A stretch of DNA of 64,000 nucleotides from an uncultured Holophagales bacterium (GCA_963842525.1 CAWJGT010000019.1:416001-480000), one strand, 5' to 3'. Shown: positions 1 to 32,587, numbered from the stretch's first letter. Numbers and translations are program-made. The notes: generated by a model from the sequence alone, not told the origin.

Positions 1-469
1 GGGGCTCTACGGCGTCTTCCTGCACACCGGCCAGACGGCCATGGCCGATCCGGTGAGCGGGCGTTATAAGGCCTTTCTTTTCGTCGGCCTCGCCTACTTC
101 CTGACCGCCGTGCTGGCGCCCCTGTTCGTCCTCAAGGTCCAGGGCGCCTCGTGGGCGTTTCCCGGGCGAGGCATGGCCTGGTCGCTCCTGGCCGGCACCG
201 TCGGCGCCATCGGGGCCTTCTGCGTCCTCCTCGCCTTCGGCGCCAAGGGAAGCCCGAGCGTCGTCATGTCCATCGTTTTCGCCGGTGCCCCCATCGTGAA
301 CGCCCTTGCCGCCTGGGTTTTCCATCCGACGAAGCTGCGCTGGCAGTTCCTGGTGGGGCTCCTCCTCGCCGCCCTCGGCGCCTTCCTGGTCACGCTCTAC
401 CGGCCGGCTCCCACCCCGCCGCCCCCGACCCAAGCCATGAGGAACAGAGGAACAGAGGGACTCTCTTGA
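1..469 (+). CDS. Small multi-TM membrane protein (DMT/EamA-like), 5'-partial; paralog of 8813-9310
   Basis: Frame is open from the window edge; hydrophobic helices; aligns to 8854-~9283 at offset 8853. Confidence 0.8.
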   Translation, partial: GLYGVFLHTGQTAMADPVSGRYKAFLFVGLAYFLTAVLAPLFVLKVQGASWAFPGRGMAWSLLAGTVGAIGAFCVLLAFGAKGSPSVVMSIVFAGAPIVNALAAWVFHPTKLRWQFLVGLLLAALGAFLVTLYRPAPTPPPPTQAMRNRGTEGLS

Positions 470-519
470 CTGTTTTCCTGCTGCAAACCTTGACCAGTAC
501 TTGAGCGGGGAGAAGAGCC

Positions 520-612
520 TTGGCGGCGACGAGAGTCTTCGTTGACACGCTCTTCGTCGTTGCTCTGATCAACCAGCGCGATCAGTACCATCAGCAGGCC
601 TTGAGGCTAGCC
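520..612 (+). pseudogene. PIN-domain (VapC-like) toxin N-terminal fragment
   Basis: RVFVDTLFVVALINQRDQYHQQA matches the PIN N-terminus (hhDT...D.hH); similarity is lost after ~30 aa. Confidence 0.65.
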
Positions 613-669
613 GCCAGACGTTTTCAGCGCCTGTATGCCCACTTGGAGGGTTCCAAGGGCAGACCTCTC

Positions 670-873
670 CCGATCCCGCGCGCGGGAAGTCAGCGGCGGG
701 CCGAAAATTGCGAAAGCTGTCAGCGGCCCGAATGCCCGAAGGCCTACCCGCTCACCCAGGGCAGGGCCGGCGGGAAGCTGCCCGCGGGGAAGACGACGTC
801 TCGCACCCCGATCTACACCCATGTTCTGAATCGTGGGGGAAGGGGAGTCCTGAGCCCGATCGACGACCTGTAG
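670..873 (+). pseudogene. intI: Eroded integron integrase C-terminal remnant
   Basis: 811-873 encodes IYTHVLNRGGRGVLSPIDDL*, the characteristic IntI C-terminus including the catalytic Tyr. It is preceded by a degraded ELLGHxDVSTT (771-810) and a DPRAGSQRR-like relic of the IntI-specific insertion (~672-699). Confidence 0.8.
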
Positions 874-937
874 AGGCTTACACGAGCAGGCGCACGTGCT
901 AAGGACTTCACACCTGTTCTCCCAAGTCGTTGATCTG

Positions 938-944
938 GTTAGGC
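938..944 (+). other. Candidate attI core (R box GTTAGGC)
   Basis: Perfect GTTRRRY 65 bp after the intI stop and upstream of the first cassette; there is no attC-type hairpin around it. Confidence 0.4.
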
Positions 945-1352
945 TTGGGCGTCCTTCCTAGGACGCCTTCATATCCGATTCCGGCCCGTAGATCCTTCCG
1001 CTGCACCCGCCAGGGTCGGCCTTCGCCGGCGAATAAGTCTTCCGCGTGTGACTCAAATAGCAATACTGCGTAGTGTCAGCTCCGCCGGAGGAGCGTCCTT
1101 CGCTCGTCCAGGAGGACGTCTTTGCGACTTGCGTGGTACCTGCCCGGCGAGAAGGCATATCAAGCGGCCTCGCGGCCTTGACGTGGATACGCAAGCGACG
1201 TAAGATGCAGTACACTTGAGACTTGGCACTCTCTCGCCCGCGCGAGGCAGTGGAGCTGGCGGGGCTGATTCGAGGATATGTCGGCGCAACAGGGTACCGG
1301 TGAATCTGTAAGATAGAGGATACACGGCAGAGAATGGGTGCGAAGAGCGAGC

Positions 1353-2201
1353 ATGCGAGGAAATAAGCGCCAACCCCTCGGGAGGGCCGTCACAATCTGT
1401 TTGGCTGGTGCCGGACTCTTCTTCGTTTTGAGATTCTATTTCGTTTCTCTAGGCTGGCACGTTGTGAGTGAGGTTACCTTACATGTGGCGGTCGCTTTTC
1501 TTGTCGCGCTGATAGTCATAGTTGCCCTTGAATACAACGCTCACCAGCAAACCCATAGAGAAGTTATGGATTTTGTAGCTCTTGTCGCCGAACAGGGATT
1601 CCAGGCGTTATTTCGAGGCCTTCCTGACTCTCTTTTCGCAGAGCTATCTGCACTTATGAGGTCCGAAGTAGTTCGAGTGGACTGCCGTTATGTGATCACC
1701 TTCAAGGAAGGAGATCCCAAGTTGGGTCCGAATCACGCCTTGCTACGGCGTGAGACGGCTTTTATAGCTCGGAATATCTCGGATCACGAAAGTGAATATT
1801 CTCTCGACTCGAGCAACTTATCTGAAACAAAAATTAATGGAGAAACGGTGGTTCTCGGCGCCAAGCAATTGGAGTTGCGAGAAAGCGGCCCCGCCATGTT
1901 CTCTCACTCTGTCTTGCTCCCTCCTAATGGCTCAGCTAGCATCTATCTATCGGGAGAGGAAAATGTCTCTCTAGGGGCAGGAAGATTTAGTTTCGTGCTG
2001 GGTACTCCCACGGTCGGCATCACGATATTTATTCGAAACGAGTGCCCAAAGCTACTGACCGATTTAAGAGTTTTGATGATTCATGGAAGTAGGATGGAGC
2101 TGCGGCAGGATAAGCAGGGCATGTACCGCTTCGACCGTGCTATCCTTCCAGGAAACGGGTTTGAGGTGTTTTGGAACCAGGAAATCGAGGTTGCCGTGTA
2201 A
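1353..2201 (+). CDS. Integron cassette ORF: hypothetical protein with 2 N-terminal TM helices
   Basis: Low-GC ORF; its TAA stop lies inside the attC R'' box (GTGTAAC). Confidence 0.75.
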   Translation: MRGNKRQPLGRAVTICLAGAGLFFVLRFYFVSLGWHVVSEVTLHVAVAFLVALIVIVALEYNAHQQTHREVMDFVALVAEQGFQALFRGLPDSLFAELSALMRSEVVRVDCRYVITFKEGDPKLGPNHALLRRETAFIARNISDHESEYSLDSSNLSETKINGETVVLGAKQLELRESGPAMFSHSVLLPPNGSASIYLSGEENVSLGAGRFSFVLGTPTVGITIFIRNECPKLLTDLRVLMIHGSRMELRQDKQGMYRFDRAILPGNGFEVFWNQEIEVAV

Positions 2202-2269
2202 CACCGGCAGTCGAGCGGACGGAACCGCAAACAGCGCGGTCCCGCCGCTCACCGCCAGCGCGGTTGGGC
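2196..2269 (+). other. attC site 1
   Basis: GTGTAAC...GTTGGGC. The inner arms ggcagt(C)gagcgg(A)cggaaccgc / gcggtcccgccgctcaccgcc pair with two extrahelical bases. Confidence 0.85.
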
Positions 2270-2284
2270 GGCCAGGAAACAACC

Positions 2285-3217
2285 ATGAGCACTGATGCAC
2301 CCAAAGATCGTGTCAGGTCGGCGAACCTCGCAATGATCGAGCGATGGTTGCCTCATTCTCTGTCCATCATAGCGATCACACTCTCGGTGTGGGCCCTCGT
2401 CCAAAATCGGTCAGACCTGGGGCAGAGTCGAGCGGAACGGGTTACTGAACTTCTCGACGAGGGGTTTGATCTCCTCTCCTCAGATCCGCACCTCCAACAG
2501 GGTGCTCATAACCGGGTAACGGATCCAAAGATTCTAACTTCCGTCTCAAGAAAGATCGACCGCGCTCTTCTTCTTGAGCCTGGGTCCGAGCGGGCCTATC
2601 AATTGAAGGCATTCTATCACGCCACTCGCGCACAGTATGCTTTAGCTGAGCAATCCGCTAGAAAGGCTATTGATATTGCGCCGCGTTCGGCTTTTGCGTA
2701 TTACACTCTTGGTAACGTGTACCACGCAGCCCTTGACCTTCCTAAAGCGGAGTCTGCGTATAGATTCGCGCTCGCGATGGATCCTCAAAGTTCGGAAGCC
2801 CTCGAAGCCTTCGGAACCCTTTTTCTGTTTCACGGACATCCCGCTAAGGCCATACCCCTTCTCCAGCGTGCGGCGGCGCTGCCACATGCAGACTCAGAAA
2901 CTTTTCTTTACCTCGCTTTTGCGCTTGGCCGAGCCGGCCGCCTTGACGAGGCGAACGCTGCTGCCTCCCAAGCTGTTGAGCACAACCCCGGCGACCCCTT
3001 GGCCCTTGAAACCCTCGCATACACTCTTGCAGGCATCCATCGTCCTGAAGACGCAATTCGGGTCTTCAATAAAGTCGCGCAGGTCAATTCGGCAAGAGCC
3101 AAGAGCGCCACCGAAGCTGCTCACTTGCTCGCTACGCGCTCAGACCTGCAGGTTAAATTTGTGGCGCACCCTGAAGACTCTCTCGATCTGCTGCTTGGAC
3201 CGGAGTCGGAGAATTGA
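2285..3217 (+). CDS. Integron cassette ORF: membrane-anchored tetratricopeptide-repeat protein
   Basis: N-terminal TM followed by several TPR units (e.g. AYYTLGNVY...AESAYRFALAMDP); ATG lies 16 bp after attC1. Confidence 0.8.
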   Translation: MSTDAPKDRVRSANLAMIERWLPHSLSIIAITLSVWALVQNRSDLGQSRAERVTELLDEGFDLLSSDPHLQQGAHNRVTDPKILTSVSRKIDRALLLEPGSERAYQLKAFYHATRAQYALAEQSARKAIDIAPRSAFAYYTLGNVYHAALDLPKAESAYRFALAMDPQSSEALEAFGTLFLFHGHPAKAIPLLQRAAALPHADSETFLYLAFALGRAGRLDEANAAASQAVEHNPGDPLALETLAYTLAGIHRPEDAIRVFNKVAQVNSARAKSATEAAHLLATRSDLQVKFVAHPEDSLDLLLGPESEN

Positions 3218-3234
3218 GACCTTGGTTACTGGCC

Positions 3235-3309
3235 ACCCAACCCAAGCGGTCGAGCGGACGGAAACCGCAAACAGCGCGGTTCCCGCCGCTCATCGGCACA
3301 GCGTCAAGC
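3235..3309 (+). other. attC site 2
   Basis: ACCCAAC...GTCAAGC (R' degenerate); the core is nearly identical to attC1. Confidence 0.8.
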
Positions 3310-3343
3310 CTCCATTTCACTTTCGTTGCGGAGAGATGAGCTT

Positions 3344-4183
3344 ATGGTGATAGTCGAAGGCCCGCAAGATTCTTCAAGGGAAGGTCGTCGGCTGAGGTTT
3401 CTCTCGGTTGCCATACTTCTAAGCTGTTCTGCGGTACTGTCTAGCTGTGGCCAAGTAGCATTCAGTGACAAGCACACAGCCGAAGAGAGCGGCTACCTCT
3501 CGCAATTTAAGGCTGCTTTTACGGCTGCATGCCGGGTCGGGACCACTCAGATAGTACAAACTGGCGTTACTCCAGTGCAGGTTTCGTGCGGCGCAGCCCC
3601 GGGTACCGGAGGTTATACTTGCACTCAATACATGCCGACCTATTCTACCGTCAAGATTGATTGGCTTTCCGATTCAGGCATCAATGCCATTGACATTTCT
3701 CCCCAGCTAGACAAGACTTTGCCGCCATCAGGTCTTGTCCAAGCACAAGAGTTCCTTGCTAGCACACTACTTTCTGAGTTACAACGGGACACCAGTATTG
3801 GGAATCAATCTTCAAGAGCCTGTCAGGCCTTTACCGAGTTCGAACAATCTGTTCAAGCACGAACCGAGTCGTACAAGACCACCGAATCGCTCTTTATAAC
3901 GTATAAACCGCCGGTCCCAGTGCTTCCCGGAATTGAGTATGACACGAGGAGCGGCTTTGGCTTAGCAGTCGATAAATCCATTACCGTTCCAACAAAGTAC
4001 GGCAACGTCACGGCTGGATATAAGTCGGCCCCCGGCATTCACATGCTGCGAGTTGTGAGCGAAGGAAAGCAACGTTACCTAACTCTCGATCGACCATTCG
4101 AGTTCTATATTCCCAAAGGATACTCTACCAGTGTGGCATATGAAGGTAAGGATGAGCTCATACTGCTGGTCAGCAAGAGTTAG
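3344..4183 (+). CDS. Integron cassette ORF: putative lipoprotein, unknown function
   Basis: Low GC; basic then hydrophobic N-terminus with a VLSSC lipobox-like motif. Confidence 0.65.
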   Translation: MVIVEGPQDSSREGRRLRFLSVAILLSCSAVLSSCGQVAFSDKHTAEESGYLSQFKAAFTAACRVGTTQIVQTGVTPVQVSCGAAPGTGGYTCTQYMPTYSTVKIDWLSDSGINAIDISPQLDKTLPPSGLVQAQEFLASTLLSELQRDTSIGNQSSRACQAFTEFEQSVQARTESYKTTESLFITYKPPVPVLPGIEYDTRSGFGLAVDKSITVPTKYGNVTAGYKSAPGIHMLRVVSEGKQRYLTLDRPFEFYIPKGYSTSVAYEGKDELILLVSKS

Positions 4184-4462
4184 GCGTTTCGAACCTTCGG
4201 CCCCTATAAACACAGAGCCGAAACCATGTCGAGGTCCCGGAGGTGCCATGGTCGAGCAGGTAGCGCAAAGACCAGTCTCGTGGTCGGGCTCGCCAAACTG
4301 CCCGGTCTGCGGACCGGCCGAGCGGTCAGGAAACCTCGTGGAGCCAAGCGGGTGCCTGGTGCCCAGGGGGGCTGAATCGTGGACTCGGAGGTCCGTTGTA
4401 TAATCAAAAAAGGCAGTGCGGTGTAACCATAGCTATATACGCGAGTAGGAAACCTTGTGTTC

Positions 4463-4532
4463 CGCCAACCTACCCCTGCACCGGACGGCTGGGCTCGCGC
4501 CCATCCGCCGGTGAGGGGACACAGCGTTGGCG
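4463..4532 (+). other. attC site 3
   Basis: CGCCAAC...GTTGGCG are complementary; cccct(G)caccgg(A)cgg pairs with ccgccggtgagggg, leaving two extrahelical bases. Confidence 0.85.
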
Positions 4533-4795
4533 TACTGAAGACCTGGAGAGCAACCGGCGTACACATTTAACACGCCCAGGGTAGGGATTGGAACGCAATT
4601 CGCTACTCTGCTTCGGAGCGATCGGAGATGTACCAACCACACCACTCGCCCGAGACACTTTCTTCCGCGGTCGGAAGGCGGATCGTGTTCATATCGTCCG
4701 CCCCGGGCGAAGATCAGGCGGCGAAGGGGTGGAGGCAGCCCAAAACTGCATTCGGCAATGGCGTCCGGAGCTGCTAGCCTAGCACGAGCGATGAT

Positions 4796-4850
4796 GCCGA
4801 AGCGGAGTAAGGCTACGCCCGAAGGGCGCGGTGAAGGGGCGTAGTTCGGC
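4796..4850 (+). other. Degenerate attC-like site 4
   Basis: GCCGAAG...GTTCGGC ends. The right arm (gggcgcggtgaaggggcgtagttcggc) is attC-like; the left arm is eroded. Confidence 0.4.
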
Positions 4851-5116
4851 GCCCTCCCTACTGCTCACCCTCCTGAGAATAGGTGCCTGGGGATTCTTGA
4901 GGACCTTGAGTATGGGAGGCCCGCGGGGCCTGCGCCAGCCTGTGTTCATCCTCCCGAGGAGCCTGAGCGAGCCTCTTGGACGCACCCAAGGGAGGATCGA
5001 GAGCGATTTTTCCCGCACTCTTTGGGGATCTGACGGCGACTGGCGGTAGGCTCAACTCTGCCCGCCAAGCAGGAGAAGGGAGAAAGCTTCTGAGAGTTGA
5101 TTGGCAGCCGGTCCGG

Positions 5117-6070
5117 CTACCCAGGCACGGGAATGAGACCACGGGGCGGCTGATCGCTGACAAAGGGCAGGTGAGGCGGAAAGCTCCCTGCGGGAAACCG
5201 CGCATTCCGATCGCCATCCTTGAGCTTGTCCGCCGCCTCCCGGAACGCCGCCACGAACCAGCTATAGGCCTCGTAGAGCTCTTTGCGGACTTTGCGGCTA
5301 AAGGCGTGAAAAAGCGGGGCCGGGGACGTCTTGGTCTTCACCGGCTGATCGGTCGGTTTCTGGCGCAGGATCGCCTTGACCCCCAGAGGTTGGCAACCGG
5401 TCTGCTCTCTCTCGGCCGCAGCTTGGGCCTCGATCTCGGCGATGAGCTCGGCGATCTTCGCTCGATACTGCTCCGGCGTTAGATGCGCCCAACAGGGTAA
5501 GGGCTCGAAGCGCAGGGTTTCGGTCTCCGCGAAGTCCCGCACTCCAAAGGACTCGCCCCGCTGGCGCGCGCTGTACTCGGCGGTGCGGCTGAACCAGGTC
5601 CCTTTCAACGACTGGCCTTCGAGCAGGGCCGCCGCCGAATGGACTCCCGGCCATTCGAGGACCCGGCCCACCAATCCTTCTTTAACCCCGTGCGCAATTA
5701 TATATTTCAAGCGCGCGACCTGGGCTCCGGCTTCATCGCTGATCACGACGGCCTGATATCGCCGGGCCCAGATTCCGTGCCTCCAGCCGGTGAGACGCTG
5801 GACCTCGAGGGCCAGGCCCGAATTGACATCACGCATGAAGTCGGCAAGCTGTTTGGCATCGGTAACCCACAGCACAAGGTGATAATGATTTGACGCAAAG
5901 GCTGCGACAATCACGGCGACTTCGTAGATTCGCTGGGCGCGGCCGAGGATGCCGATGATGATGTCGTTGAGCTCAGGGCTGGGCCGGAGGAGGAAGCGGC
6001 TCTGGACGGTGCGGCAGGTGACCTCGACGAGGGCGCCTCCTTCGGGGATGAATCGCAGTCTCCGGGCCAT
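5117..6070 (-). mobile_element. Y1 HUH transposase-like protein (IS200/RAYT superfamily), 317 aa
   Basis: VTCRT N-terminus, HUH motif SNHYHLV, W.RRY, catalytic Tyr in LKYIIAHGVKEGLV...WPGVHS. Confidence 0.8.
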
Positions 6071-6427
6071 GACGTGGGCGGTGGCAAGACGGCTGCCAAT
6101 TCGGGGCTCTGGGTCAAGTTGTTGATTTTAAGTGAGTTATCGGAAAGAGGGAGCGGGGTGACCCGGATCTCGTGTCCAGTGATCTGGCGGGGGGTAGATG
6201 CGAAATGGCCCGCAAAGGCCCGTCGTTGTTGGATTTTGGGTCGTGTCAAGTTATTAGGCGGGGGTGCAGAATCTTTTGCGGGCGACCCAAATCGCGGTGT
6301 TTCGGGGGGTTGGAGCGGTGGGTGCAGGGCGGGACGGTACTTCGAGGGTGGGATAATCGCGGTCTTCTTCCGCGAGAAGCACGAGCATCCGCTTCCGCCG
6401 AGGATCCTCTGGCACCTCAAACCTGGC

Positions 6428-6893
6428 AACGAGCCAGCGGAGCTTACATCGGCGTGGCGGAGCTTACGCTGGGCTAACGTAAGCTTACATCGGCGTGGCG
6501 GAGCTTACATCGGGCCAGCGGAGCTTACGCTGGGCCAGCGTAAGCTTGCAACGAGCCAGCGGAGCTTACATCGGCATGGCGGAGCTTACGTTGGGCTAAC
6601 GTAAGCATACATCGGCGTGGCGGAGCTTACATCGGGCCAGCGGAGCTTACGCTGAGCCAGCGTAAGCTTGCATCGAGCCAGCGGAGCTTACATCGGCATG
6701 GCGGAGCTTACGTTGGGCTAACGTAAGCATACATCGGCGTGGCGGAGCTTACATCGGGCCAGCGGAGCTTACGCTGGGCCAGCGTAAGCTTGCAACGAGT
6801 CAGCGTAAGCTCCGCCGAGGCAACGCAAGCTCCGCGACGCCGATGCAAGCTTGCATCGCGCCAGCATCAGCTCCGCTGAGGCAACGCAAGCTC
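6428..6893. repeat. Higher-order tandem array of ~23 units spaced 20/20/21 bp around an AGCT core, with palindromic units and an orientation flip
   Basis: AGCT cores at 6441, 6461, 6482, 6502, 6522, 6543 ... 6889; 61-bp and 122-bp superperiods; AGCTTACGCTGG-G-CCAGCGTAAGCT palindromes. Confidence 0.9.
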
Positions 6894-7054
6894 TTCTACG
6901 CCATGGCAGGCTCGCATCGTTCTGACAGATGTTCCGCTGAGCCCGTGCAAGGATCGCTGGGACGGAGTGAGCGGACTTTGCTCCGGCCCTGGCTCCGCCA
7001 GGCCGGCGTGGCCAGCGCCGGGGCAAGGGATCGAGAGGGCGAGACCGCGGAAGG

Positions 7055-7088
7055 AAAAAAAGAGGGAGCGTGCCGGGCACGCCCCCTC
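7055..7088 (-). terminator. Intrinsic terminator after the 7108-7506 gene
   Basis: Minus strand GAGGGGGCGTGCCCGGCACGCTCCCTC followed by TTTTTTT. Confidence 0.8.
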
Positions 7089-7107
7089 GACGAGACTGGA
7101 CAGCCGA

Positions 7108-7506
7108 TCAGGTCGCAGGCTCTTGGACCGGGGCCTTGGCTTGCGGCTCCTCGGGAGCCGACTTCTTCGCCTTGAGCCCGGCCGCCTTCCGGCCGCGGAA
7201 CGGCTGCAGGCCGAATTCGGCGAGCTTCTCCGACCGGATCCCGTAGTGCTCCTTGACCGACAAGCGCAGAACCGTCGCCAGCCGCTCGCCTTCGGTGACG
7301 ATCACCTTGAGCCGCTTGGACGCCTCCTGCTTGCTGGCCGCCATCGCCTCCTGCTGCTTGTTGATGTCGACCCCCTCGGCCAGCAGCCCTCCCAGCTTGG
7401 TCCACTGCGGCTGCAGATGGCCGAGCTCGCCGACGTTGGCCTCCAGCTTGGGCAGCATCCGCTGCCAGTCCCCAAACACTTCCGAATACGTACGCGCCTT
7501 CGACAT
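7108..7506 (-). CDS. Hypothetical helical/coiled-coil protein, 132 aa
   Basis: AGAAGGAGG RBS, host-like codon usage, its own terminator; ends ...HYGIRSEKLAEFGLQPFRGRK. Confidence 0.8.
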   Translation of the reverse strand: MSKARTYSEVFGDWQRMLPKLEANVGELGHLQPQWTKLGGLLAEGVDINKQQEAMAASKQEASKRLKVIVTEGERLATVLRLSVKEHYGIRSEKLAEFGLQPFRGRKAAGLKAKKSAPEEPQAKAPVQEPAT

Positions 7507-7697
7507 GACCTGCCTCCTTCTTTCTGGGTCCTCAGGACCCGAACATCCGGCGCCGCGCCGGAAGAGCGATCTGTGCTGGCGGGCCTGAACGCCGGCCCTG
7601 TCTACTCGCTTCCTACGCGGGAACTATGGGGTATGTTACCGGTGTTGTCAAGACTGTTTCTCGTACTTCGGTTCTCTTGTATGTGCATAAAAACAGA

Positions 7698-7733
7698 GAA
7701 GAGAAAAGGGGGCATGTTGGCTTGCACGCCCCC
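7698..7733 (-). terminator. Terminator-like hairpin upstream of the 7506 gene
   Basis: Minus strand GGGGGCGTG-loop-CATGCCCCC followed by TTTTCTCTT. Confidence 0.5.
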
Positions 7734-7872
7734 GAGACAACAGGCTACTTCAAGGGGCCGGAAATAGAAGCAGGCACCGGCACCGAGATGGGGCGCCGGT
7801 CTGGGCAGATCTGGATATCCGCCTTCTGTATTCAACTGCAACGCAGGAATAGTCGGATACGTCCAGGCCCTC

Positions 7873-7919
7873 TGTCAAGTCTTTTTTACTTGACCTGACC
7901 GGGTGTTATGGCATAGGAT
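7873..7919. promoter_or_regulatory. argR promoter with a palindrome forming back-to-back -35 boxes
   Basis: TTGACC (7890-7895), 18 bp, TAGGAT (7914-7919); inverted repeat GTCAAGT-N7-ACTTGAC; TTGACA on the minus strand at 7873-7878. Confidence 0.5.
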
Positions 7920-7925
7920 GAGGCC

Positions 7926-8381
7926 ATGCCAAGGAACCCCCAGGCTCGGCGCCAACGCCAGCAGGCAATCGTGGACCTCATTCGGGAGAAGAAGACGATC
8001 GGCAGCCAGTGGGAGCTCCAGGAGCTGCTCGCTGGCAAGGGGATCCTCGCCACGCAGTCGAGCATCAGCCGCGACCTGCAGGACCTCGGGGCCCGGCGGG
8101 TCAAGGGGTCCTACGTGTTGCGGCCGTGGCGGGCGGTGGGCGATTGGGACTTCGACTCGATCATCGGCCTGGTCGAGCAGATCACCAAGGCAGGCCCCTT
8201 TCTCGCGGTGGTCCAGACGAACCCCAACGCGGCCAAGCTGGTGGCCCGGGCCATCGACGAAGCCGGCTGGGAGGAGCTCGCGGGCACGGTGGCCGGGGAG
8301 GACACGGTCTTCATCGCCACGCGCACCCCGGAAGGCCAGGAACGTCTCTTCCAGCGCTTCGCGAAATATCTCAAGGCGTGA
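7926..8381 (+). CDS. argR: Arginine repressor
   Basis: RQQAIVDLI...SQWELQELL...ATQSSISRDL wHTH; C-terminal GTVAGEDTVFI arginine-binding motif. Confidence 0.9.
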   Translation: MPRNPQARRQRQQAIVDLIREKKTIGSQWELQELLAGKGILATQSSISRDLQDLGARRVKGSYVLRPWRAVGDWDFDSIIGLVEQITKAGPFLAVVQTNPNAAKLVARAIDEAGWEELAGTVAGEDTVFIATRTPEGQERLFQRFAKYLKA

Positions 8382-11369: not shown

Positions 11370-13097
11370 TCAGCCAGTGTACTGAAAGCCTTCCGCAACG
11401 TTGAGGAGTGTCGCACCAATGGCATCGGTGACCGTCACGGCCACGATCCCGTCACTCTTGGCGGGAGGAGTCACGGCTGAAAGTGTATTTGGATCGACGA
11501 CCTGCACACTGGTTGCAGTGTCGCCGCCGAATTTAACCGTCGGGGTGCCGGTGAAGCCCGCTCCCTTAATGACAACCGCTGTGCCACCGGACTTGGATCC
11601 AGAGGCTGGGGACACCGGTGTGTAAAGGTAGGCCCCAGGAAGGGTAGAGGACAGGTTGCCGGTACCGGTGACTGTGACTGCGACACGGCCTGCGGGATGG
11701 GGTGGCGTCACGGCGGACAGGTTCGTGGGTGAGACGAAGTGGCTGGAAGCAGCCTGACCATCAAACGTCACTTTGTCACCAGCCGAGAATCCTGTGCCAG
11801 TGAGCAGGACGAGAGTGTTGCCGTCAATCGACCCTACGTTGGGTGCGATCGAGGTCACCGTTGGTCCGACGGCCGTTGCGGCCGGCGGTATGGGTGGCGC
11901 CTGATTGGCACCCTGCGGCGGCTTGGTCAGGATCGCCTCGGTGATGTCTTTGAGCTTCGCCACGGCCTGTTCACTGAACATCCCCACCAGGATGGCGATT
12001 CCGACAATCAGCAGTCCAGTGCCGCCCTTTTCTGGCTTCCAGAGACCGGCGCGCATGATCAGGTAAAAGGCCGCCGCCACGAGCCCGCCGGTGAAGGGCA
12101 GAAGCACGTACCGGAGGGTCCAGTTCCGCACCAGGGTCTTGTTGCCAAAGTACCAAGAGAGTGAGCGCATGGCGTGGAGTGTGGCGCCCAGCATGCCGGC
12201 GAGGAGGACGGCGATGAAGAGCCGCACCTCGTAGGTGGCGGGGCAGGTGAAGGTATACGCCGCCTGAAGCATGGCGCTCTGGCCGTCGCTGTTGCGCACT
12301 TCCACGTTGACGGGCCCGGCGGGATGACCCGGCGCGGTGACCACGAGCACCTCGTCGCTCCCATGGACCTCGCGTGCTTCGACGCCGCCGAAGGTCACCG
12401 ATGGGTTCTCGAGGAAGCCGCTGCCACGGAGAATGACCTTGCTACCGCCTGTAATCCGCCCGGAATCGGGGGAGACCGACAATAGCTGGACGCGCCGGAT
12501 TTCACGGTACTCATAGCGGACGTTCTCGTTGCTGCCGACGGTGGCGTCCTGGTTTAAGACCTTGACCGACACCGCGCCCGCCGCATGGGCAGGCGCGGTG
12601 AGCCGAATTGTTCCCGAGTCTTGCGGTGTCGCCTGGACTCGCTCCAGACCGTCGAACTCGACAAAAACCGTCGGCGTGAACCCGCGGCCGCGGAGGACGA
12701 TTGTATTGGCGCCGGAGACGGGGCCGCTCCGGGGTTTGATATCTGTGAGATTGGGCTGCGTCCCCGGAGCGGCAAAGGCCGCGGCCGGTGGGTCTGTTGC
12801 TTTCTCGTCGGCGACGATGACCTCAGGCTGACAGCAGAAGGTCTCCAGAGACGGCCAGAGCCCGAGGAGAAGACCGATACAGGCCCCGGTAATCAACAGG
12901 AGATAACCGGCAAGGAGCCCGGCTCCCAGTCCGCGTACCGGAACATCGCCGGCCCCGACGCCAACCGCCGGAGGAGGAGCCACCGAAGGAGGAGCCACCG
13001 GGGCAGGAACCGCTGGGGCGGGAACCGCTGGGGCAGGAACTGCCGGAGCAGGAGCCAGCCTCTTGATTTTAGCGATGAAATCAGACCAGATTCCCAT
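11370..13097 (-). CDS. Membrane protein with four IPT/TIG domains
   Basis: Repeated P.SG...GG..V...G.GF...V.F.G units flank a 3-TM core; start chosen at MGIWSDF, after an AGAGGAG RBS. Confidence 0.8.
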   Translation of the reverse strand: MGIWSDFIAKIKRLAPAPAVPAPAVPAPAVPAPVAPPSVAPPPAVGVGAGDVPVRGLGAGLLAGYLLLITGACIGLLLGLWPSLETFCCQPEVIVADEKATDPPAAAFAAPGTQPNLTDIKPRSGPVSGANTIVLRGRGFTPTVFVEFDGLERVQATPQDSGTIRLTAPAHAAGAVSVKVLNQDATVGSNENVRYEYREIRRVQLLSVSPDSGRITGGSKVILRGSGFLENPSVTFGGVEAREVHGSDEVLVVTAPGHPAGPVNVEVRNSDGQSAMLQAAYTFTCPATYEVRLFIAVLLAGMLGATLHAMRSLSWYFGNKTLVRNWTLRYVLLPFTGGLVAAAFYLIMRAGLWKPEKGGTGLLIVGIAILVGMFSEQAVAKLKDITEAILTKPPQGANQAPPIPPAATAVGPTVTSIAPNVGSIDGNTLVLLTGTGFSAGDKVTFDGQAASSHFVSPTNLSAVTPPHPAGRVAVTVTGTGNLSSTLPGAYLYTPVSPASGSKSGGTAVVIKGAGFTGTPTVKFGGDTATSVQVVDPNTLSAVTPPAKSDGIVAVTVTDAIGATLLNVAEGFQYTG

Positions 13098-13235
13098 TGC
13101 GTTCTCCTCTGGGGTGCTACACCTTTCTGTCTTGCCCTTGGTGTCATGCAGGTGAAGAGACGGACGCCACCATTGATTTTTCCAGAGGAGGGCGGGCTGT
13201 CTCCTCAACGGAAGCGGCTGGCTTTTCGTGAGAAG

Positions 13236-14207
13236 TTACGACTGCTTCGAGCCGTGGTGAGGAGCTGAGCCCGCGATGCTCCAGCCGATCAGGCCGCACA
13301 GGGAGAATCCGAGGGCGTTGGAGGTGCCATGGAAAACCCACATCCTGGGATAGTCCAGCCCACTGAGCGGGAACCAGGACCGGGAGCCATACAGGCCGGC
13401 GAGCACCATGCCGGCGGCGAGGGTGAGGCCGGCGATCGCCCAGAGAAGGCGGGCTCGCGTGGGCCGCGAGGGATCGAAGACCAGCCGGAGGTGCAGCCAG
13501 GCCGCGAGGAGCCCGGCGAGCGCGGTGATCCCGGCGGCCACGGTCTCCAGAAGTGGGCCAGAGCCGAGCTGTGAGGCTGTGATGCCAGTGGCCACCAGGG
13601 GCACCCCGGCGATCACCCCCAGAGCGGCCAGGTTTGCGAGGATTCCCTGCCGCGCCTGTCCTGCCAGGCCGGTCAAAAGGGGTAGGGCGAAACCGGCGTA
13701 GTGGAAGTGCACGGCGGTGAGCAAGACGACGATCGTGGCGAACTGCAAGGGGTGGACATCCGCGCGGTCCAGGAAGGCCCAGCCGGCACCGACGAGAGGG
13801 AAGGCCAGGCCTGCATCGATCGCGAGGTCCGGAGGTGGGCGCAGGCCGCGGCGCAGAAAACGCAGGAGCGCAAGGAGGGCCATGACGCCGGTCGTGGCGA
13901 GCCAGGGCAGGGCCAGGCCGGCCGCTGCAACGCCCTGCGGCAGGATGAAGGCCGCCGCGAGGGCCAGGGCCGCAGGGAGCTGCAGAACCACCGCCGCCCG
14001 CCAGCAACGGCCGGCGCCGCTCGCGAGGTCCTGAGGCTCCACCAGGCGCAAGCCCAAGGGCACCAGGGCCAGGGGCGCCAGGAGGAGGAGGGAGACAACC
14101 CAATCCGCCGAGGACGGGGAGGGCGGCCGGACAGCGAGGAGCGCGAGCCAGATGACGCCGCCCGCGACGGCGCATCTCAGTGCCCAGACGCTCCAGCGGC
14201 GCGTCAC
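13236..14207 (-). CDS. YndJ-like membrane protein
   Basis: LLTAVHFHYAGF and MWVFHGTSNALGF motifs; GTG overlaps the DUF1990 stop. Confidence 0.8.
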   Translation of the reverse strand: MTRRWSVWALRCAVAGGVIWLALLAVRPPSPSSADWVVSLLLLAPLALVPLGLRLVEPQDLASGAGRCWRAAVVLQLPAALALAAAFILPQGVAAAGLALPWLATTGVMALLALLRFLRRGLRPPPDLAIDAGLAFPLVGAGWAFLDRADVHPLQFATIVVLLTAVHFHYAGFALPLLTGLAGQARQGILANLAALGVIAGVPLVATGITASQLGSGPLLETVAAGITALAGLLAAWLHLRLVFDPSRPTRARLLWAIAGLTLAAGMVLAGLYGSRSWFPLSGLDYPRMWVFHGTSNALGFSLCGLIGWSIAGSAPHHGSKQS

Positions 14208-14782
14208 TCCGCCTCCCGCGCCGCTTGCTCCATGGCCGCTTTCGACTCGACCTGGAAGCGCTTCTGGAGCCGCCGTGCCAACGGGCGGCCGAGCCTGACC
14301 ATCCAGTGCCGGGGCCGCGAGAAGGCGAAGAGGTCGTACCACACACTGCCGTCGGCGAGCTGCTCGACCATGAATCGCTCCTCGCCCTGCTCGACGTGAT
14401 CTTCCAGGGTCCCATAGGCGAAGCCGAACCGGCGCACCGGGCTGTCCTCGTCCAGTGTGTAGACGACCCGCGTGGCGTTGAGCCACCAGAGGCCGAAGTA
14501 GCGCACCAGCATAGCGACCTCCAGTTCGGGCGTGATCGGAGCGTCGGGAGCCTGCAGCTCGACCCATCCCAGCCGGGCCATGCGCCAGCTCCGGATCGCC
14601 GCGCACGCCGCCGCAAAGACGGCGTCTCCCGAGCCCAGCCGGACCCGGTTGTGGTCGACCTTGTACCCCGCTGGCGGATCGCCCCGCGAGGCGCCGACCT
14701 CGGCATAGGAGAAGGGCCGGCCGTGCTGCCGGTCCAGGAAGGCCTGGATCCTGGCGGGGGTGGGGCGGCGGAGCGAGATCAC
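14204..14782 (-). CDS. DUF1990 (UPF0548) protein
   Basis: FSYAEVGAS...FGFAYGTLEDHVEQGEERF. Confidence 0.85.
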   Translation of the reverse strand: MISLRRPTPARIQAFLDRQHGRPFSYAEVGASRGDPPAGYKVDHNRVRLGSGDAVFAAACAAIRSWRMARLGWVELQAPDAPITPELEVAMLVRYFGLWWLNATRVVYTLDEDSPVRRFGFAYGTLEDHVEQGEERFMVEQLADGSVWYDLFAFSRPRHWMVRLGRPLARRLQKRFQVESKAAMEQAAREAE

Positions 14783-14849
14783 TGGAACCGGATTCTAGCG
14801 CTGCGGGCTGGATTGTGGCATCTTCTACAGAACCGTATAAGGAATAGGC

Positions 14850-17800
14850 ATGGGCAAGAAGAGCTGCACGATGCGGGTCGCCTGTCGGGTCCTTTGCTAC
14901 ACCCTTCTGCTCCAGGCGAGCCCGGCGGCACAAGGTCAAGGTCTCCCAGCCGCGCCGAGCCCCGAGTGGGTGGAAGCCGGAAGGATCGCCGCTGAGCCGG
15001 ACCGTCCCGCCATCGGGGGCTTGCCGGCGGCCTCCGCGAGCTCGCCAGCACCCCGGCCTCGCCAGACCCGGGCGGCCTCCGTCGAGCCCCGGACCGCTTT
15101 TCGGGCCGAGCTCCGGAAGGCGCCTGCCGAGGAGAGGGTTGAGGAGCCCCCATCGGCGCCGGCCCCCATCCGTCCGGAAGACCTGCCGCCGTTTCCTCCC
15201 GCAATGGAAGGCGCCACCCTGCCCCGCGCCGCGGCCGCGACGGCGCTGACCGCCACCTCGCTGATCCCTGGCTGGAATCTCGCCTCCGTCCAGAACCAGC
15301 CCCCTGATCCCACCCCGGCCGCGGTCTTCTCTTCGATCGCCGGCACGTTCACCCGCGTTTGGGCCTACGACGCCTGTGCTCCGGGAGACCCGTGGAAGGT
15401 CTACGACCCGGCCGACGCGGCGGTCAGCAACCTGACGGCGGTCGATCAGGAGATCGGCTTTTGGATCGAGATGACGGCGCCCGCGCCGGTGCCGAGCCCC
15501 GGCACCCTGGCGGACGAGACCACGATCCACCTCTGCACCGGTTGGAATCTGATCGGCTTCCCGGCGGGTCAGGCGCGGCCCGTGCGCACCGCCCTCTCCT
15601 CGATCGAAGGCAAGTACGCCCGCGTCTTCGGCTTCGACCCGGCGGACACCTCCGATCCGTGGGAGATCTACGACGTGGCGGTGCCCGCCTGGGCCAACGA
15701 CCTGGAGCTGATGCAGCCCGGCCGCGGCTACTGGGTGCTGGCCACGTCGGAGACCGACCTGGTGATCTCCAATGCCGGCGCCGAGCCGGAGGTGGCCATC
15801 ACCGCGCCGTCCGACCTCGCGGTCGTCACCGCGCCTACGGACGTGATCGGAACAGTGAAGAGCGACCGGCTCGAAAGCTGGACTCTGTCCTATCGCGCTC
15901 ACGGCGACGCGGAGGGGGCCGTCTTCGCATCGGGCAACACGCCGGTCGTGAACGGCCGTCTGGGCACGTTCGACCCCACGTTGCTGCTGAACGGCGGCTA
16001 CACAGTGGAGCTGACCGCGACCGACTTCAACGGCCAGAGCAGCACCGTCTCCATCGACGTGAGCGCCGAAGGCCAGATGAAGATCGGCAACTTCACGTTG
16101 CAGTACATCGACCTGGAGATCCCGCTTTCGGGGCTGCCGATCCAGGTGGTCCGGAACTATGACAGCCGCGACAAGCGCCGGGGTGACTTCGGGGTCGGCT
16201 GGACGCTGGAGCTGCGCCAGGGCACGTACCGGAACAACCGTCCGCCAGGAGAGGGCTGGGACATCTCCTCGGGCTTCCTGCCGTGCCAGGAGGTCACCGA
16301 GATCGAGACGCACCTGACGACGATCCGCCTCTCGGACCAGGAGATCTACCGCTTCAAGCCCGGGCTCGCGAGCCCAGCGCCCACGCTGGGCGGCTGCTTC
16401 GCCCAGGCGCGCTTCGATTTCGTGGACGGTCCCGTGCCCGGCGCGACGCTGGCGATCCTGGGCAACACCGAGGTCATCTATCAGAACGGTACCGACTACG
16501 TCGTGGACTCCGGCTCGTTCGAGATCTACGAGCCGCAGCAGGTACGGCTCACCCTGCGTGACGGCCGCGTGTTCGACCTGCACATCCAGCAGGGGGTGAC
16601 CCGGCTCCAGGACGTGAGCGCCAATACCCTCTCGATCACGCCGGGTGCGATCACCCACTCCAGCGGACGCTCGGTGGCGATCCAGCGCGACAGCCTGGGC
16701 CGGATCGCCAGCATCACGGACCCTGCGGCGAAGAGCGTCACCTATGCCTACGACGCCGCAGGCGACCTCGTCTCGGTGACGGATCGCGAGTCGAACACCA
16801 CGCAGCTCACCTATGCAGCCAACCACCATCTGTTGGAGATCGAGGATCCCCAGGGGCGCCAGCCGGTCCGCAATGAGTACGACGGCTCGGGCCGCCTGAT
16901 CCGGACCACGGACTCGCAGGGCAGGACGGTGGAGTTCGAGCACCGGCTCGGCGACCGGGTGGAGGTCGTGACGGACCGGCTGGGGCGCGTCCGCGCCCTG
17001 GAATACGACCAGCGTGGCAACGTCGTGCGGGAGGTGGACACCGCTGGCAAGGAAACCTTGCGGACCTTCGACGCGAAGGACCGCATCCTCACCCAGACCG
17101 ACCCGCTGGGCAACACCACGGCCTATACCTATGACGCGTTCGGAAACATCACCAGAGTCACCGACCCCGCGGGAAACGCCACAGCCTATACCTACAACAG
17201 CCGCGGGCAGGTTCTGGCGATGCTCGACTCTCGCGGCAAGCTGACCAAGCGTACCTATGACGCCAAGGGCAACCTCACCACCGTCATCGATCCGCTGGGC
17301 AACACGACGAGCTACACCTACGACGGCGCCGGCAACGTCCTGACCGAGACCGGCCCGGAGGGCCACGTCACCGCCTATGTGGTGGATACCTTCGGCAATA
17401 CGGTCAAGCAGGTCGATGCTCTCGGCCACGAGACCACCTTCACTTTTGACGCCAATGGCAACGAGCTGACCCGGACGACCAGCCGTACCACGGCCTCGGG
17501 CACGGAGACGCTGACCTGGACATCCGTCTATGACGACGCCGGACGCCTGGTCCGGTCCGTGGATCCCGACGGGACCTTCACCACCACGGCGTACGACCAT
17601 CGGGGCAACGTGGTGGAGAAGGTGGACAAGCTGGGCCGGCGGACGACTTTCGCCTACGACGGTACGGGGCTGCTGACGACGACCGCGTATCCCGACGGCA
17701 CGTCCGAGGTCCGGACGTACGACGCCGAGGGGAGGCTGGCGTCGCAGACCGACCGGGCGGGCCGCACGACGACGTTTGAGCGCGACCCGCTGGGGCGGCT

Positions 17801-26538: not shown

Positions 26539-26710
26539 GGATTTCGTCTCCTTGCAGATCAAGAGGCCCCCAGGAGGCCCCAGAGTAGCCTGACAGCGGC
26601 CAGCATCTTAGCATGGTACGGATGGGGAGGGGCGGGAGGATGGGTGGGAGATTGGGGCTTCCGCCGAATCTCCGGAAGGGGTAATCTCGGGGTACGTGGA
26701 GTCAGACATC

Positions 26711-27721
26711 GTGGCGATCACAAAGATCAAGGTCTCCAATTTCAAGAGCTTCGATGAGTTGAAGCTCGATCTTCGGCCCTTGAATATCGTCATTGGCGCG
26801 AATGCAGCAGGCAAGTCGAACTTCCTGGAGATCTTCCGGTTTCTCCGGGACATAGCGGAGCATGGCATCGAGAACGCGGTTTCTCTCCAGGGCGGGATGG
26901 ACTACCTTGGCAACCTGCAGATCAGAGATCGCTCCACCCGTGTAGCCTTCGAAGCCCATGTTCCTTCTGGAGATGGCGATACCTCCTTGTCGGGAGAGGT
27001 CACAATCCTGCCTCGGTCCGGCTCTCCCGGCTTCCAGATCGTCACAAAAGAAACCTCCTCGGGCTTCCCCGACCTCCTTGAGATCCTGTCGGGTGACATC
27101 AGGATCTTCGACTTCGATCCTGGGCTGTCCAAGCGCGCCATACCGGTGAGTGGCAAGGCCGACCTCGAGCCCGACGGCAGCAATCTGGCGCTCATCTTGA
27201 GGAGGGTCCTTCAAGACGAGAAGGATCGCTTTATCTTCACGGAGCTCTTGAAGGATGCCTTGCCGTTTGTCGCAGACCTCAGGGTCGAACAGTTCACGGA
27301 CAGGTCTCTTCTGCTCGCGCTCAAGGAAAATTATTCGTGGGACAGCTATGTCCCGGCTGCGTTCCTCTCCGATGGCACGATTCATTTGGTCGCCCTGATC
27401 CTTGCCCTCTACTTCGAGCGAGGGGAGATCATTGTCATCGAGGAGCCCGAGCGGAACATCCATCCCCGCCTGATCTCGAAGGTGGTCGGGATGCTCAAAG
27501 ACACGTCCCGCCGGAAGCAGGTGATCGTAACCACTCACAACCCTGAGCTGGTCAAGCATGCTGATCTGGCGGATCTGCTCCTGGTCCAGCGGGACGAGCT
27601 GGGATTCTCGCGCATCTCCCGTCCGGCCGAGAACGAGGAGCTGAAGGTGTTCCTCGAGAACGATCTGGGCATCGAAGACCTCTACGTCCAGAACCTGCTC
27701 GGCTTGAGGCATGCCGTATAG
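26711..27721 (+). CDS. ABC/AAA_21-type ATPase
   Basis: NFKSF, GANAAGKSN, LSDGT, IEEPE, TTHNP. Confidence 0.88.
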   Translation: MAITKIKVSNFKSFDELKLDLRPLNIVIGANAAGKSNFLEIFRFLRDIAEHGIENAVSLQGGMDYLGNLQIRDRSTRVAFEAHVPSGDGDTSLSGEVTILPRSGSPGFQIVTKETSSGFPDLLEILSGDIRIFDFDPGLSKRAIPVSGKADLEPDGSNLALILRRVLQDEKDRFIFTELLKDALPFVADLRVEQFTDRSLLLALKENYSWDSYVPAAFLSDGTIHLVALILALYFERGEIIVIEEPERNIHPRLISKVVGMLKDTSRRKQVIVTTHNPELVKHADLADLLLVQRDELGFSRISRPAENEELKVFLENDLGIEDLYVQNLLGLRHAV

Positions 27722-31400: not shown

Positions 31401-32587
31401 TCACGAGGAAGAAAGGGCCGTGACTTCTCCGAAGAGATCGAGATGCCGGGCGGCTTCCTTCGCTGCCTCGGCATCCTGGCTCAGCTCATCGATCCGCAGG
31501 AGCTCGCCGGGGGTATAGAGGCGCTCTCGGAGGGCCCACCGGCTGGCTTGGGAGAGAGGAGCGATGATCGTACGGCCGCTTTCCATCGTGACGACCCGGA
31601 TCTGCTCATCCGTGAGCTCTTTGGCGTCGAGCAGGTCGGGACTGTGAGTGGTGACGATCACCTGGCGGTCCCGAGCCGTGTTGAGGAGGACTTCGACGAC
31701 CAACTCGGCCGACGCAGGATGGACCGTGGCTTCGGGCTCTTCAATGAGGAGGATGGAGGGACGGCGAGGCTGGGGATGCGAAGCGTCCCTTCGGACATGT
31801 CGAAGCCTGAAAAAGAGGTAGGGCTCTGGTCGCCTGCGTCTTTGCGGAATCGAAGATCGACTGTTTGTTCCAGAGTCCTGGCGCTGACGGTCAGAGGCTC
31901 TCCTACGACATGGGCCAGCAGTCCATTGATCAGCTCGCCAGCGTCCGGTTGCCGTTGCTGCAGAGCCCTCAGGACCGAGGCGGCGTTCTTGCCGGTCGAA
32001 TCCAGAGACATGCCGGAGTCTGCAGCCTGAGCGAATCTCATCCACTGGTGCTCGATGGAGTAGGCCCGGATCGTCGAGAGAAAGTCATACAGCGGCCGAT
32101 ACTCCTCGGTCGCGGACGCTGCGAAGAGGGCGAGCCGGTCAGGCTCCATCTTCGACCGGATTCCCGCGATCTCCCGAACGAAGCTGCCCTCGTGGACCTC
32201 AAAGCCATCTTCGCGATCCGGAGCCCGCATCATGCACCTTTCCTTGGAGACCCGGTAGGCGCCGTCCTGCTTTCCTGTAATCTCGAAGGAATAGTCGGCG
32301 CTGCTCTCCTCGGGCAGGTCGACTCGCAGGCGAAACCCGACTTTGATCTCTGAAAGACTGGACCAGCGGGGGAAAACAGAAATTTCGCCAAGCCGACCGA
32401 AAGCTTCGCCGATCGACAAGGAGAGGCACTCCTGCACGAACGTCAGGGCCTGGATGAAATTGGTCTTTCCTGCCCCATTGGTTCCCACCAGCGCCGTGAA
32501 CGGCTCCAGATCAACCACCGCCCTCTCAATGCTCTTGAAGTTCTGGATCTGGATCTGGCGGATTTGGGGCACCATAGGGGCGCTCAT
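31401..32587 (-). pseudogene. ABC/AAA_21-type ATPase with an internal deletion/frameshift at ~31775
   Basis: NFKSI, GTNGAGKTN, MSEGTLRI, then jumps frame to QPRRPSILLIEEPE...TTHSP; the helix after the signature motif is missing. Confidence 0.75.

Follow-up and report, generated by a model that had tools for sequence, protein, structure and literature searches.

The left end of the stretch of DNA analyzed here (64,000 nucleotides from an uncultured Holophagales bacterium, GCA_963842525.1 CAWJGT010000019.1:416001-480000, hereafter referred to as the window) raises the question of whether a fragment resembling the C-terminus of an integron integrase (IntI), together with the hairpins lying downstream of it, is what remains of an integron and, if so, by which route the integrase gene (intI) disappeared. 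In a first-pass annotation made from the sequence, the locus was described as a chromosomal integron in a reverse arrangement, the integrase of which had eroded. The results of the present study indicate that positions 520-4532 very probably represent what is left of a sedentary chromosomal integron, belonging to the "inverted integrase" type, in the genome of a Thermoanaerobaculia-like member of the Acidobacteriota. The locus is a CALIN (attC sites clustered without an integron integrase) that carries a very short intI relic in an inverted layout, and it joins classes of elements that are already in print.

The integrase relic

805-873, + strand: C-terminal relic of an integron integrase, 22 codons and the stop codon (TIGR02249, PDB, protein and tblastn searches)

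The open frame at 505-873 on the + strand terminates in ...IYTHVLNRGGRGVLSPIDDL* at 873, and the earlier assignment of this C-terminus to the IntI type was confirmed. The last 24 residues correspond to positions 292-315 of the 315 in the NCBIfam model TIGR02249, "integron integrase", with an E value of 6.6e-5 for the 117-aa open reading frame (ORF) and of 8.4e-6 for the last 39 aa alone. A match to XerC/D had been named as the alternative; no Xer family appeared up to E=10 in the NCBIfam scan, the sole other family being NF011946, which is also an integron-integrase model. The best PDB chain was VchIntIA (2a3v), the integron integrase of Vibrio cholerae, at residues 297-318 of 320 (E 0.02). 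In a comparison of the last 40 residues with 5.8 billion proteins, 283 of 864 candidates reached E<=0.01, and the source names in all of the 120 rows listed were "integron integrase".

The proposed tblastn check with IntI proteins was run on the 64 kb, and 40 of 40 queries matched solely at 790/799/805-864/876, with other matches in the window at 32 bits or less; no second intI or other integrase gene was found within the window by this search. Similarity is weak from 805 back to 790, and a longer relic reaching back to 601, as drawn by one gapped tblastn alignment (P0029), was rejected, the matches upstream of approximately 790 being unconvincing. The locus therefore retains only the last 22-27 codons in place of the intact intI of a complete integron. 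The DNA of the relic shares 82% identity with the 3' end of intI in a related locus (L004), where the gene is intact, and the relic is too short for placement on an IntI tree.

The attC sites

2196-2269, + strand: attC1 (model match 2190-2275; 70.3 bits, E 1e-23)
3235-3309, + strand: attC2 (model match 3229-3315; 68.0 bits, E 9e-23)
4463-4532, + strand: attC3, divergent subtype (model match 4457-4538; 33.2 bits, E 1.3e-9)

A covariance model of this attC family was built because Rfam has no attC model; Rfam scans of positions 1-8000 of the window and of the related loci L030 and L062 gave only chance matches of the miRNA type. The family was collected with a gapped pattern derived from the inner stem common to the hairpins at 2196 and 3235, with which one genome per species was scanned. 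At least 126 loci were obtained, and 127 distinct matches outside the window were among those listed, on which all of the locus counts given below rest. A strict filter (AAC and GTT/GTC at the right distances) was passed by 61 of the 127, and the removal of one Streptomyces chance match left 60 sites in the model; approximately 16 of the 66 failures look by eye like family members with variant ends, the rest being chance matches in GC-rich genomes. The true family members among the matches listed belong nearly all to Thermoanaerobaculia, Holophagales or unclassified Acidobacteriota metagenome-assembled genomes (MAGs).

The 60-site alignment reads RYYYAAC, a short spacer, a 6-bp stem, an extra base, a 6-bp stem, an extra base, an inner hairpin, the return arm and GTTRRRY. 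Covariation was evident, with 80.1% of cells paired versus 75.7 +/- 0.5 in shuffled alignments (0 of 500 reached the observed value) and 32-46% with slid partners; the pair 21-70 is GC in 40 sequences and AU in 18, and stems outside the seeding pattern covary. Scored with this model from other genomes, the hairpins at 2196, 3235 and 4463, which had been proposed as attC sites from the sequence, were borne out on the + strand only. A search of the 64 kb with filters off gave 20.6 and 18.5 bits on the reverse strand, and the best unrelated match scored 13.8 bits.

The R'' box of attC1, GTGTAAC, includes the stop codon of the first cassette ORF, its R' box is GTTGGGC (2263-2269), and its top strand has two extra bases, C2212 and A2219, on either side of the 6-bp stem GAGCGG. 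In attC2, which is 83-95% identical to attC1 in blocks, the boxes are ACCCAAC and GTCAAGC (3303-3309), while attC3 has CGCCAAC and GTTGGCG (4526-4532), with a top-strand extra G and A flanking the 6-bp stem CACCGG. AAC is present in all three sites, and GTT in attC1 and attC3; the GTC of attC2 is a variant that also occurs in relatives, e.g., L017. Outer box positions depart from the consensus (RYYYAAC/GTTRRRY) in the R'' box of attC1, the R' box of attC2 and both boxes of attC3. On the bottom strand, each of attC1-3 folds better than shuffled sequences (z -3.0, -3.2 and -6.5, respectively) and better than on the top strand. The extrahelical bases lie on the top-strand AAC arm, i.e., as G and T (attC1, attC2) or C and T (attC3) on the bottom strand, with a 6-bp stem between them. 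This is the geometry of extrahelical bases and 6-bp stem described for functional attC sites (Nivina et al., 2016; PMC5027507).

The sites would keep what an integrase requires on the folded bottom strand, namely, the AAC/GTT core triplets, an unpaired spacer and two extrahelical bases with a 6-bp stem between them. They look structurally intact, and their recombination by an integron integrase is predicted. With three sites at spacings of 1039 and 1228 nt, at 70, 68 and 33 bits with the family model, the locus agrees with the definition of a CALIN, by which two or more attC sites lie within 4 kb of one another and an integron integrase is lacking.

A further hairpin at 4796, noted earlier as a possible attC site, was not supported: the fold at 4778-4851 has a z score of +0.81 relative to shuffled sequences, and the best + strand score within 4540-5120 is 4 bits. 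This segment shares by eye 15 of 18 bases with the 5' part of an attC site of L042 and ends in GTTCGGC, and it may be a decayed attC site. The candidate at 4249-4323 was not supported either, with a fold z score of -0.3 and no match to the family model.

Orientation of intI in related loci

When 10 IntI proteins were used as tblastn queries, 11 distinct loci among those listed proved to contain a complete or fragmentary IntI, and in 10 of the 11 intI lies upstream of, and on the same strand as, attC arrays of the window's family; the exception is L096, a locus of 401 nt. Full-length intI genes in this layout are present in L004, L030 and L061, and so the search for an intact intI in the same orientation in relatives, which the first-pass annotation had recommended, was successful. 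The gene is partial in L010 and L050 and reduced to C-terminal relics in L018, L042, L059, L065 and L072, with L059 carrying two such relics inside one array with attC sites on both sides. Because intI points toward the array in 10 of the 11 loci, the reverse layout is the norm of this clade. The layout of the window is itself reverse, with the relic upstream of and on the same strand as the three attC sites, in line with what had been claimed; the accompanying view of this arrangement as the rarer one does not apply within the clade. In this lineage, transcription of intI runs toward its own cassette array. The fact that 7 of the 10 co-oriented copies are partial or relics also suggests that arrays outlive integrases, most copies of intI beside arrays of this clade being degraded.

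Loss of the integrase gene

520-615, + strand: N-terminal fragment (about 31 codons) of a truncated VapC/PIN toxin gene (protein matches)
650-809, - strand: relic of a gene for a Y1/HUH transposase-like protein resembling repetitive extragenic palindrome (REP)-associated tyrosine transposases (RAYT-like), comprising the last 21 codons (809 to 747) and the 3' flank (tblastn, blastn)

The 117-aa ORF that ends in the IntI relic is chimeric: it opens with the VapC/PIN fragment, contains both relics and exists as a predicted protein (P0358). The product of 520-615 is 69-86% identical to the N-termini of PF01850 proteins (~135 aa) over 53-70% of a 47-aa query, and Pfam gave no match to the whole 117-aa ORF. 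The earlier notion of an IntI relic hidden in a PIN-fusion ORF was therefore correct, with approximately 31 VapC/PIN residues in front. The expectation that annotation would miss the locus holds for the relic, which sits in a chimeric ORF without a Pfam match, but not for the array, which an attC-based tool would probably call as a CALIN. Integron tools would be expected to overlook the relic because a profile coverage of more than 50% was required for intI pseudogenes by Cury et al. (2016; PMC4889954).

On the - strand, positions 809 to 747 encode the C-terminal motif of RAYT-like proteins, with 58-76% identity to ten of them in tblastn (lowest E values 8e-8 when 1.4 kb was searched and 5e-5 for the entire window). 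At the DNA level, 740-794 matches the 3' ends of RAYT-like genes in seven loci (blastn), and a motif of the 3' flank near 655-675 was recognized by an eye comparison with L050. The IntI and RAYT-like relics meet at approximately 805-809 on opposite strands, with their missing 5' parts facing each other. As the relics are joined at their broken 5' ends, a single deletion across a divergent pair of a RAYT-like gene (-) and intI (+) would leave exactly such a junction. One deletion may accordingly have taken nearly all of intI and most of the divergent RAYT-like gene, leaving the last 22 and 21 codons joined. The predicted ancestral order, RAYT-like gene (-), intI relic (+) and array (+), is present in L065, in which both genes are partly decayed.

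We infer from this junction that the integrase was lost through deletion and not through gradual erosion. The loss of the integrase and the CALIN left behind agree with the first-pass annotation; the erosion that it assumed does not, since the junction with the RAYT-like relic is still readable. Very short intI relics that profile-coverage rules miss can tie a CALIN to its former integrase, and the loss of intI can be a single readable deletion.

From the intI stop codon to the first cassette

877-903, no strand assigned: imperfect palindrome CTTACACG...CGTGCTAAG directly after the intI stop codon at 871-873 (sequence)
914-967, + strand: attI-like region, probable start of the first cassette (sequence; weak model match)

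Palindromes similar to that at 877-903 follow intI, by eye, in L030 (~1172-1198) and L042 (~14294-14268, - strand), and are of the type CTTACACGAC...GTCGTGTAAG. Repeats related to the palindrome, GTATAAGC or GGATAAGC, were also observed after intI in L004, L059 and L061. These palindromes and repeats may be integrase-binding or regulatory sites.

The attI-like region contains the core-like motifs CCCAAG (921-926), GTTGATC (929-935) and GTTAGGC (938-944), the last of which overlaps CTTGGGC (944-950) and is the GTTAGGC reported previously at 938; a 7-bp hairpin lies at 948-967, and a weak 7.2-bit match to the family model pairs CCCAAG with CTTGGG. An attI crossover at 938-945 is plausible on these motifs. 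No conserved attI was derivable from the post-intI sequences of the relatives. The region at ~914-950 would lead into three or four + strand cassettes, with attC boundaries at 2196-2269, 3235-3309 and 4463-4532.

Cassettes and the ORF-less module

1353-2201, + strand: cassette 1 ORF (282 aa), two long N-terminal helices and a beta-sandwich domain
2285-3217, + strand: cassette 2 ORF (310 aa), membrane-anchored TPR-repeat protein (Pfam TPR families, E down to 8e-17)
3344-4183, + strand: cassette 3 ORF (279 aa from ATG; 285 aa from TTG at 3326), lipoprotein-like (lipobox)
4182-4462, + strand: conserved ORF-less module upstream of the divergent attC subtype, starting at a second GTTAGGC (4181-4187)

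The GC contents of the three cassette ORFs are 0.47-0.60 versus 0.60-0.71 in the flanks, in agreement with their earlier description as low-GC ORFs, and crossover between the G and the TT of the R' box would place cassette boundaries after 2263, 3303 and 4526. ORF1 belongs to an uncharacterized family with 117 relatives at E<=1e-3, and its nearest ESM Atlas clusters are mostly from Acidobacteriota. It had no Pfam, PDB-sequence or PADLOC match, and its AlphaFold2 model (predicted local distance difference test score 91) gave only weak Foldseek fold matches (template modeling scores 0.22-0.39). Among 30 of its relatives (alignment A6), two carry a Metallophos (calcineurin-like phosphoesterase) domain and one a TIR domain, a weak hint that the conserved domain of the family pairs with effector-type domains. 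ORF3 has the lipobox LSSC in its translation and a weak LptM signal-sequence match (E 0.17), its Atlas neighbors were called "lipoprotein" at a score of only 0.79, and it matched neither Pfam nor PADLOC. None of the cassette proteins matched defense systems in PADLOC, and the searches of Pfam, NCBIfam, PADLOC, PDB sequences, ESM Atlas and Foldseek added nothing on cassette functions beyond TPR, the lipobox and a generic beta-sandwich.

The two ends of cassette 2 can pair: its first 21 bases (2262-2282) are complementary at 18 of 21 positions (86%) to 3222-3242, which end at its own R'' box. Beyond the core, 11 of 13 positions match, with an estimated chance probability of approximately 1e-5. 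This complementarity looks like the footprint of a circular form, as would be expected if the two ends once made up one attC stem.

The module at 4182-4462 also occurs elsewhere, with two full copies (7966-8348 and 15779-16150) and one partial copy in L030 and single copies in L015 (3250-3547), L062 (7517-7887) and L080 (1373-1761). Identity among these copies is 77-96%, and their identity to that in the window, which has two deletions, is 74-79%; the copies always lie upstream of the divergent attC subtype. The module spans approximately 400 nt and contains long invariant blocks together with several hairpin loops of the sequence GCTTCGC. The module is not a gene; its small ORF is frame-shifted between copies. 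It had no Rfam match, and RNAalifold on five copies gave similar energies for both strands, with compensatory changes in only 9 of 113 and 6 of 106 pairs. The segment 3304-4526 can be read either as a single cassette that has a long non-coding tail or as two fused cassettes, the latter reading being raised by the start of the module at the second GTTAGGC. A 9-bp inverted repeat, CCTAACTCT/AGAGTTAGG, spans the end of ORF3 at 4076-4187, and this segment was not supported as an attC site (z -1.5, no match to the family model); if it were a real site, 3304-4526 would consist of two cassettes.

RAYT-like genes near the arrays

5117-6070, - strand: intact RAYT-like Y1/HUH transposase-like gene, antisense to the array, with its 3' end 584 nt past attC3

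The product of this gene scored 39.9 bits (E 3.6e-10) with NF047646, which has a cut-off of 80, and 18.2 bits with Pfam Y1_Tnp, which has a cut-off of 23; because both scores are below the curated cut-offs, the gene is a distant relative only and is referred to as RAYT-like. It is 51-60% identical to genes at the same position in related loci. The array in the window is bracketed by the RAYT-like relic (747-809, - strand) and the intact copy in the same orientation.

For a census, we started from 43 pattern-positive loci of at least 4 kb and dropped L009, L020, L036, L055 and L077 as chance matches and L048 as gammaproteobacterial; with L030 and L046 merged, 36 remained. A RAYT-like gene or relic lies within 10 kb in 17 of these 36 Acidobacteriota attC loci listed (L018, L025, L030/L046, L032, L037, L038, L042, L047, L049, L050, L061, L064, L065, L073, L074, L080 and L004), counts that are not independent because several loci share MAGs. 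Of 19 gene pieces, 18 lie antisense to the attC sites, and 12 of the 17 loci have a copy 0.6-3.5 kb past the last detected attC site that points its 3' end toward the array; the two copies in the window conform to the pattern. The flanks of the RAYT-like gene are unconserved between loci and contain neither attC halves nor conserved insertion sequence (IS) ends, and no attC site was found past its 5' end in the window or in related loci. The gene therefore resembles neither a cassette nor a classical IS but looks like a backbone gene located where the array ends.

A literature search found no report of a recurrent association between RAYT-like genes and attC arrays. The closest case comes from Halorhodospira halochloris, where an IS200/IS605 element immediately follows a CALIN (Sonbol and Siam, 2021; PMC7923331) and a Y1/HUH gene likewise lies just past the last attC site of an array without intI. 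As far as that source describes it, the case concerns one genome and a typical tnpA-tnpB IS with copies elsewhere, whereas the gene in the present clade is longer (~310 aa), RAYT-like, without tnpB, and antisense near arrays in many MAGs. We consider it unlikely that the RAYT-like gene is a regular part of the Acidobacteriota integron platform, i.e., a conserved antisense distal gene, sometimes located upstream of intI, the product of which is a single-strand hairpin nuclease acting on attC-type hairpins. Its activity could serve cassette making, array mobilization or the deletions that remove intI, the present findings being of association only, and the antisense rule could also stem, without a functional link, from an orientation bias that gene and array share with respect to replication. 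If functional, the link would bear on how cassettes and attC sites arise and move.

Approximately 360 nt upstream of the start of the RAYT-like gene in the window lies a tandem repeat (6426-6919; 122-nt period, 3.1 copies, 96% matches) of 20-nt units with GAGCTTAC and short palindromes. The GAGCTTAC repeats were rejected as REPs of the RAYT-like gene, as they occur in the window only at 6426-6919 and are absent near the gene in 12 other loci.

Weighing of the explanations

Several points weigh against the locus being the remains of an inverted integron. The scores of attC1 and attC2 are partly built in, because the seeding pattern came from these two sites, and the model is family-specific; attC3 does not fit the seeding pattern and is therefore an independent test, as are the stems that flank the pattern. 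From the intI stop codon to ORF1, GTTRRRY occurs once, as GTTAGGC at 938, in a stretch of 464 nt in which ~0.45 would be expected by chance with equal base frequencies, and the flank of the attC1 R'' box pairs with this GTTAGGC at only 5 of 7 positions. The ends of 3304-4526 do not pair. The promoter signal is not significant, with two promoter-like sites versus 2.1 expected; that at 1178-1206 is within this chance expectation. No close relative with an intact intI at the corresponding locus was found among the loci listed, in which the window's own genome did not appear.

The tentative placement of the attI crossover and a stretch of ~480 nt without explanation from the intI stop codon to the start of ORF1 leave room for the view that the relic and the array adjoin by chance, the cassettes having entered at a secondary site or having been rearranged beside an older integrase fragment. 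We regard such a coincidence as very unlikely, since the order of an intI 3' end, a short spacer with core-like motifs and co-oriented attC sites of this family recurs in 10 related loci, and the intI of L004, to the 3' end of which the relic DNA is 82% identical, heads an array of the same attC family. Even less credible is the idea that the hairpins are REP-like elements spread by the neighboring RAYT-like Y1 transposase and that the IntI fragment is an unrelated leftover. The presence of RAYT-like genes beside the repeats in 17 of the 36 related loci listed, and twice in the window, speaks for it, as does the action of Y1/HUH enzymes on single-stranded hairpins (see also PMC8266576). However, the repeats are 70-75 nt long, share a single orientation, are spaced by co-oriented ORFs with stop codons in or just before them, and carry RYYYAAC/GTTRRRY-type ends and the canonical pair of extrahelical bases; moreover, full-length intI genes head such arrays in L004, L030 and L061, and the RAYT-like genes have unconserved flanks without attC halves and no attC site past their 5' ends.

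A more serious rival concerns not the origin of the locus but its present state. The array may be alive, as one of several in the genome, and serviced in trans by an intact IntI encoded elsewhere, in which case the local relic would be irrelevant to mobility; we place this possibility somewhat below an even chance. Related MAG chromosomes do carry several arrays (OY969112.1 has L042, L070, L074 and L076), approximately half of CALINs were found in replicons or genomes encoding IntI (Cury et al., 2016; PMC4889954), and the three attC sites look structurally intact. No second intI lies within the 64-kb window, and intact copies are not plentiful in the clade, 7 of the 10 co-oriented related copies being partial or relics. 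For the inverted integron remnant that we favor, the cassettes would no longer be movable in cis, and their excision or capture could still occur with IntI supplied in trans.

Relation to known integrons

Cury et al. (2016; PMC4889954) reported intI pseudogenes near 15 of 279 CALINs under the rule of more than 50% profile coverage. The window resembles those CALINs in having two or more attC sites that share an orientation and are spaced by less than 4 kb, in lacking a functional intI, and in its unknown cassettes and a remnant within 10 kb; it differs in that its remnant of 22-27 residues is far below that coverage and in that the deletion junction itself can be read. The inverted integrase group was described as paraphyletic in the same article, and the window, with the relic and all three attC sites on the + strand, has the layout of this group. 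In the chromosomal integron of Treponema denticola, intI is similarly directed toward the cassettes, and attC sites have outlasted intI in at least one lineage, T. phagedenis, which lost intI and kept attC sites (Wu, Doak and Ye, 2013; PMC3607928); the window differs from the inverted group of Treponema in phylum (Acidobacteriota) and attC family. Taxon-specific attC types, including an Acidobacteria-specific attC model, were presented by Ghaly et al. (2021; PMC8352920), and the present family likewise shows that the attC sequence and structure of a lineage can be captured in a covariance model. The divergent attC3 subtype and its upstream module were not found in the portions of that article consulted.

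Genomic setting and other features of the window

2-469, + strand: 3' part of an EamA-type transporter gene, the left chromosomal flank (Pfam EamA, E 2.8e-7)

The chromosomal setting claimed for the locus was substantiated by genes for PilT, ArgR, TruA, an RHS protein and a non-ribosomal peptide synthetase (NRPS) in the window, and the class placement is based on the named relatives of PilT, which are Thermoanaerobaculia. The locus adds a documented case to CALINs, intI pseudogenes and inverted chromosomal integrons and extends them to Acidobacteria of the Thermoanaerobaculia type, a group that is abundant in soil and known largely through MAGs.

Elsewhere in the window, an IPT/TIG-domain protein gene (11370-13208, - strand) adjoins a pair formed by an RHS-repeat gene (14850-20279, + strand; 506 bits) and an overlapping long frame (13236-19706, - strand), the far end of which is YndJ-like. 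Two AAA_15/AAA_21 ATPase genes (26696-27721, + strand, and 31658-32587, - strand) matched families in PADLOC that are candidates for defense, namely, HEC-01A with E down to 2e-65, in addition to AbiL, AriA and OLD-type models. A very large NRPS region with AMP-binding, PP-binding and condensation domains occupies 32875-64000 on the + strand, and consists of one open frame of 5629 aa and further modules up to the end of the window.

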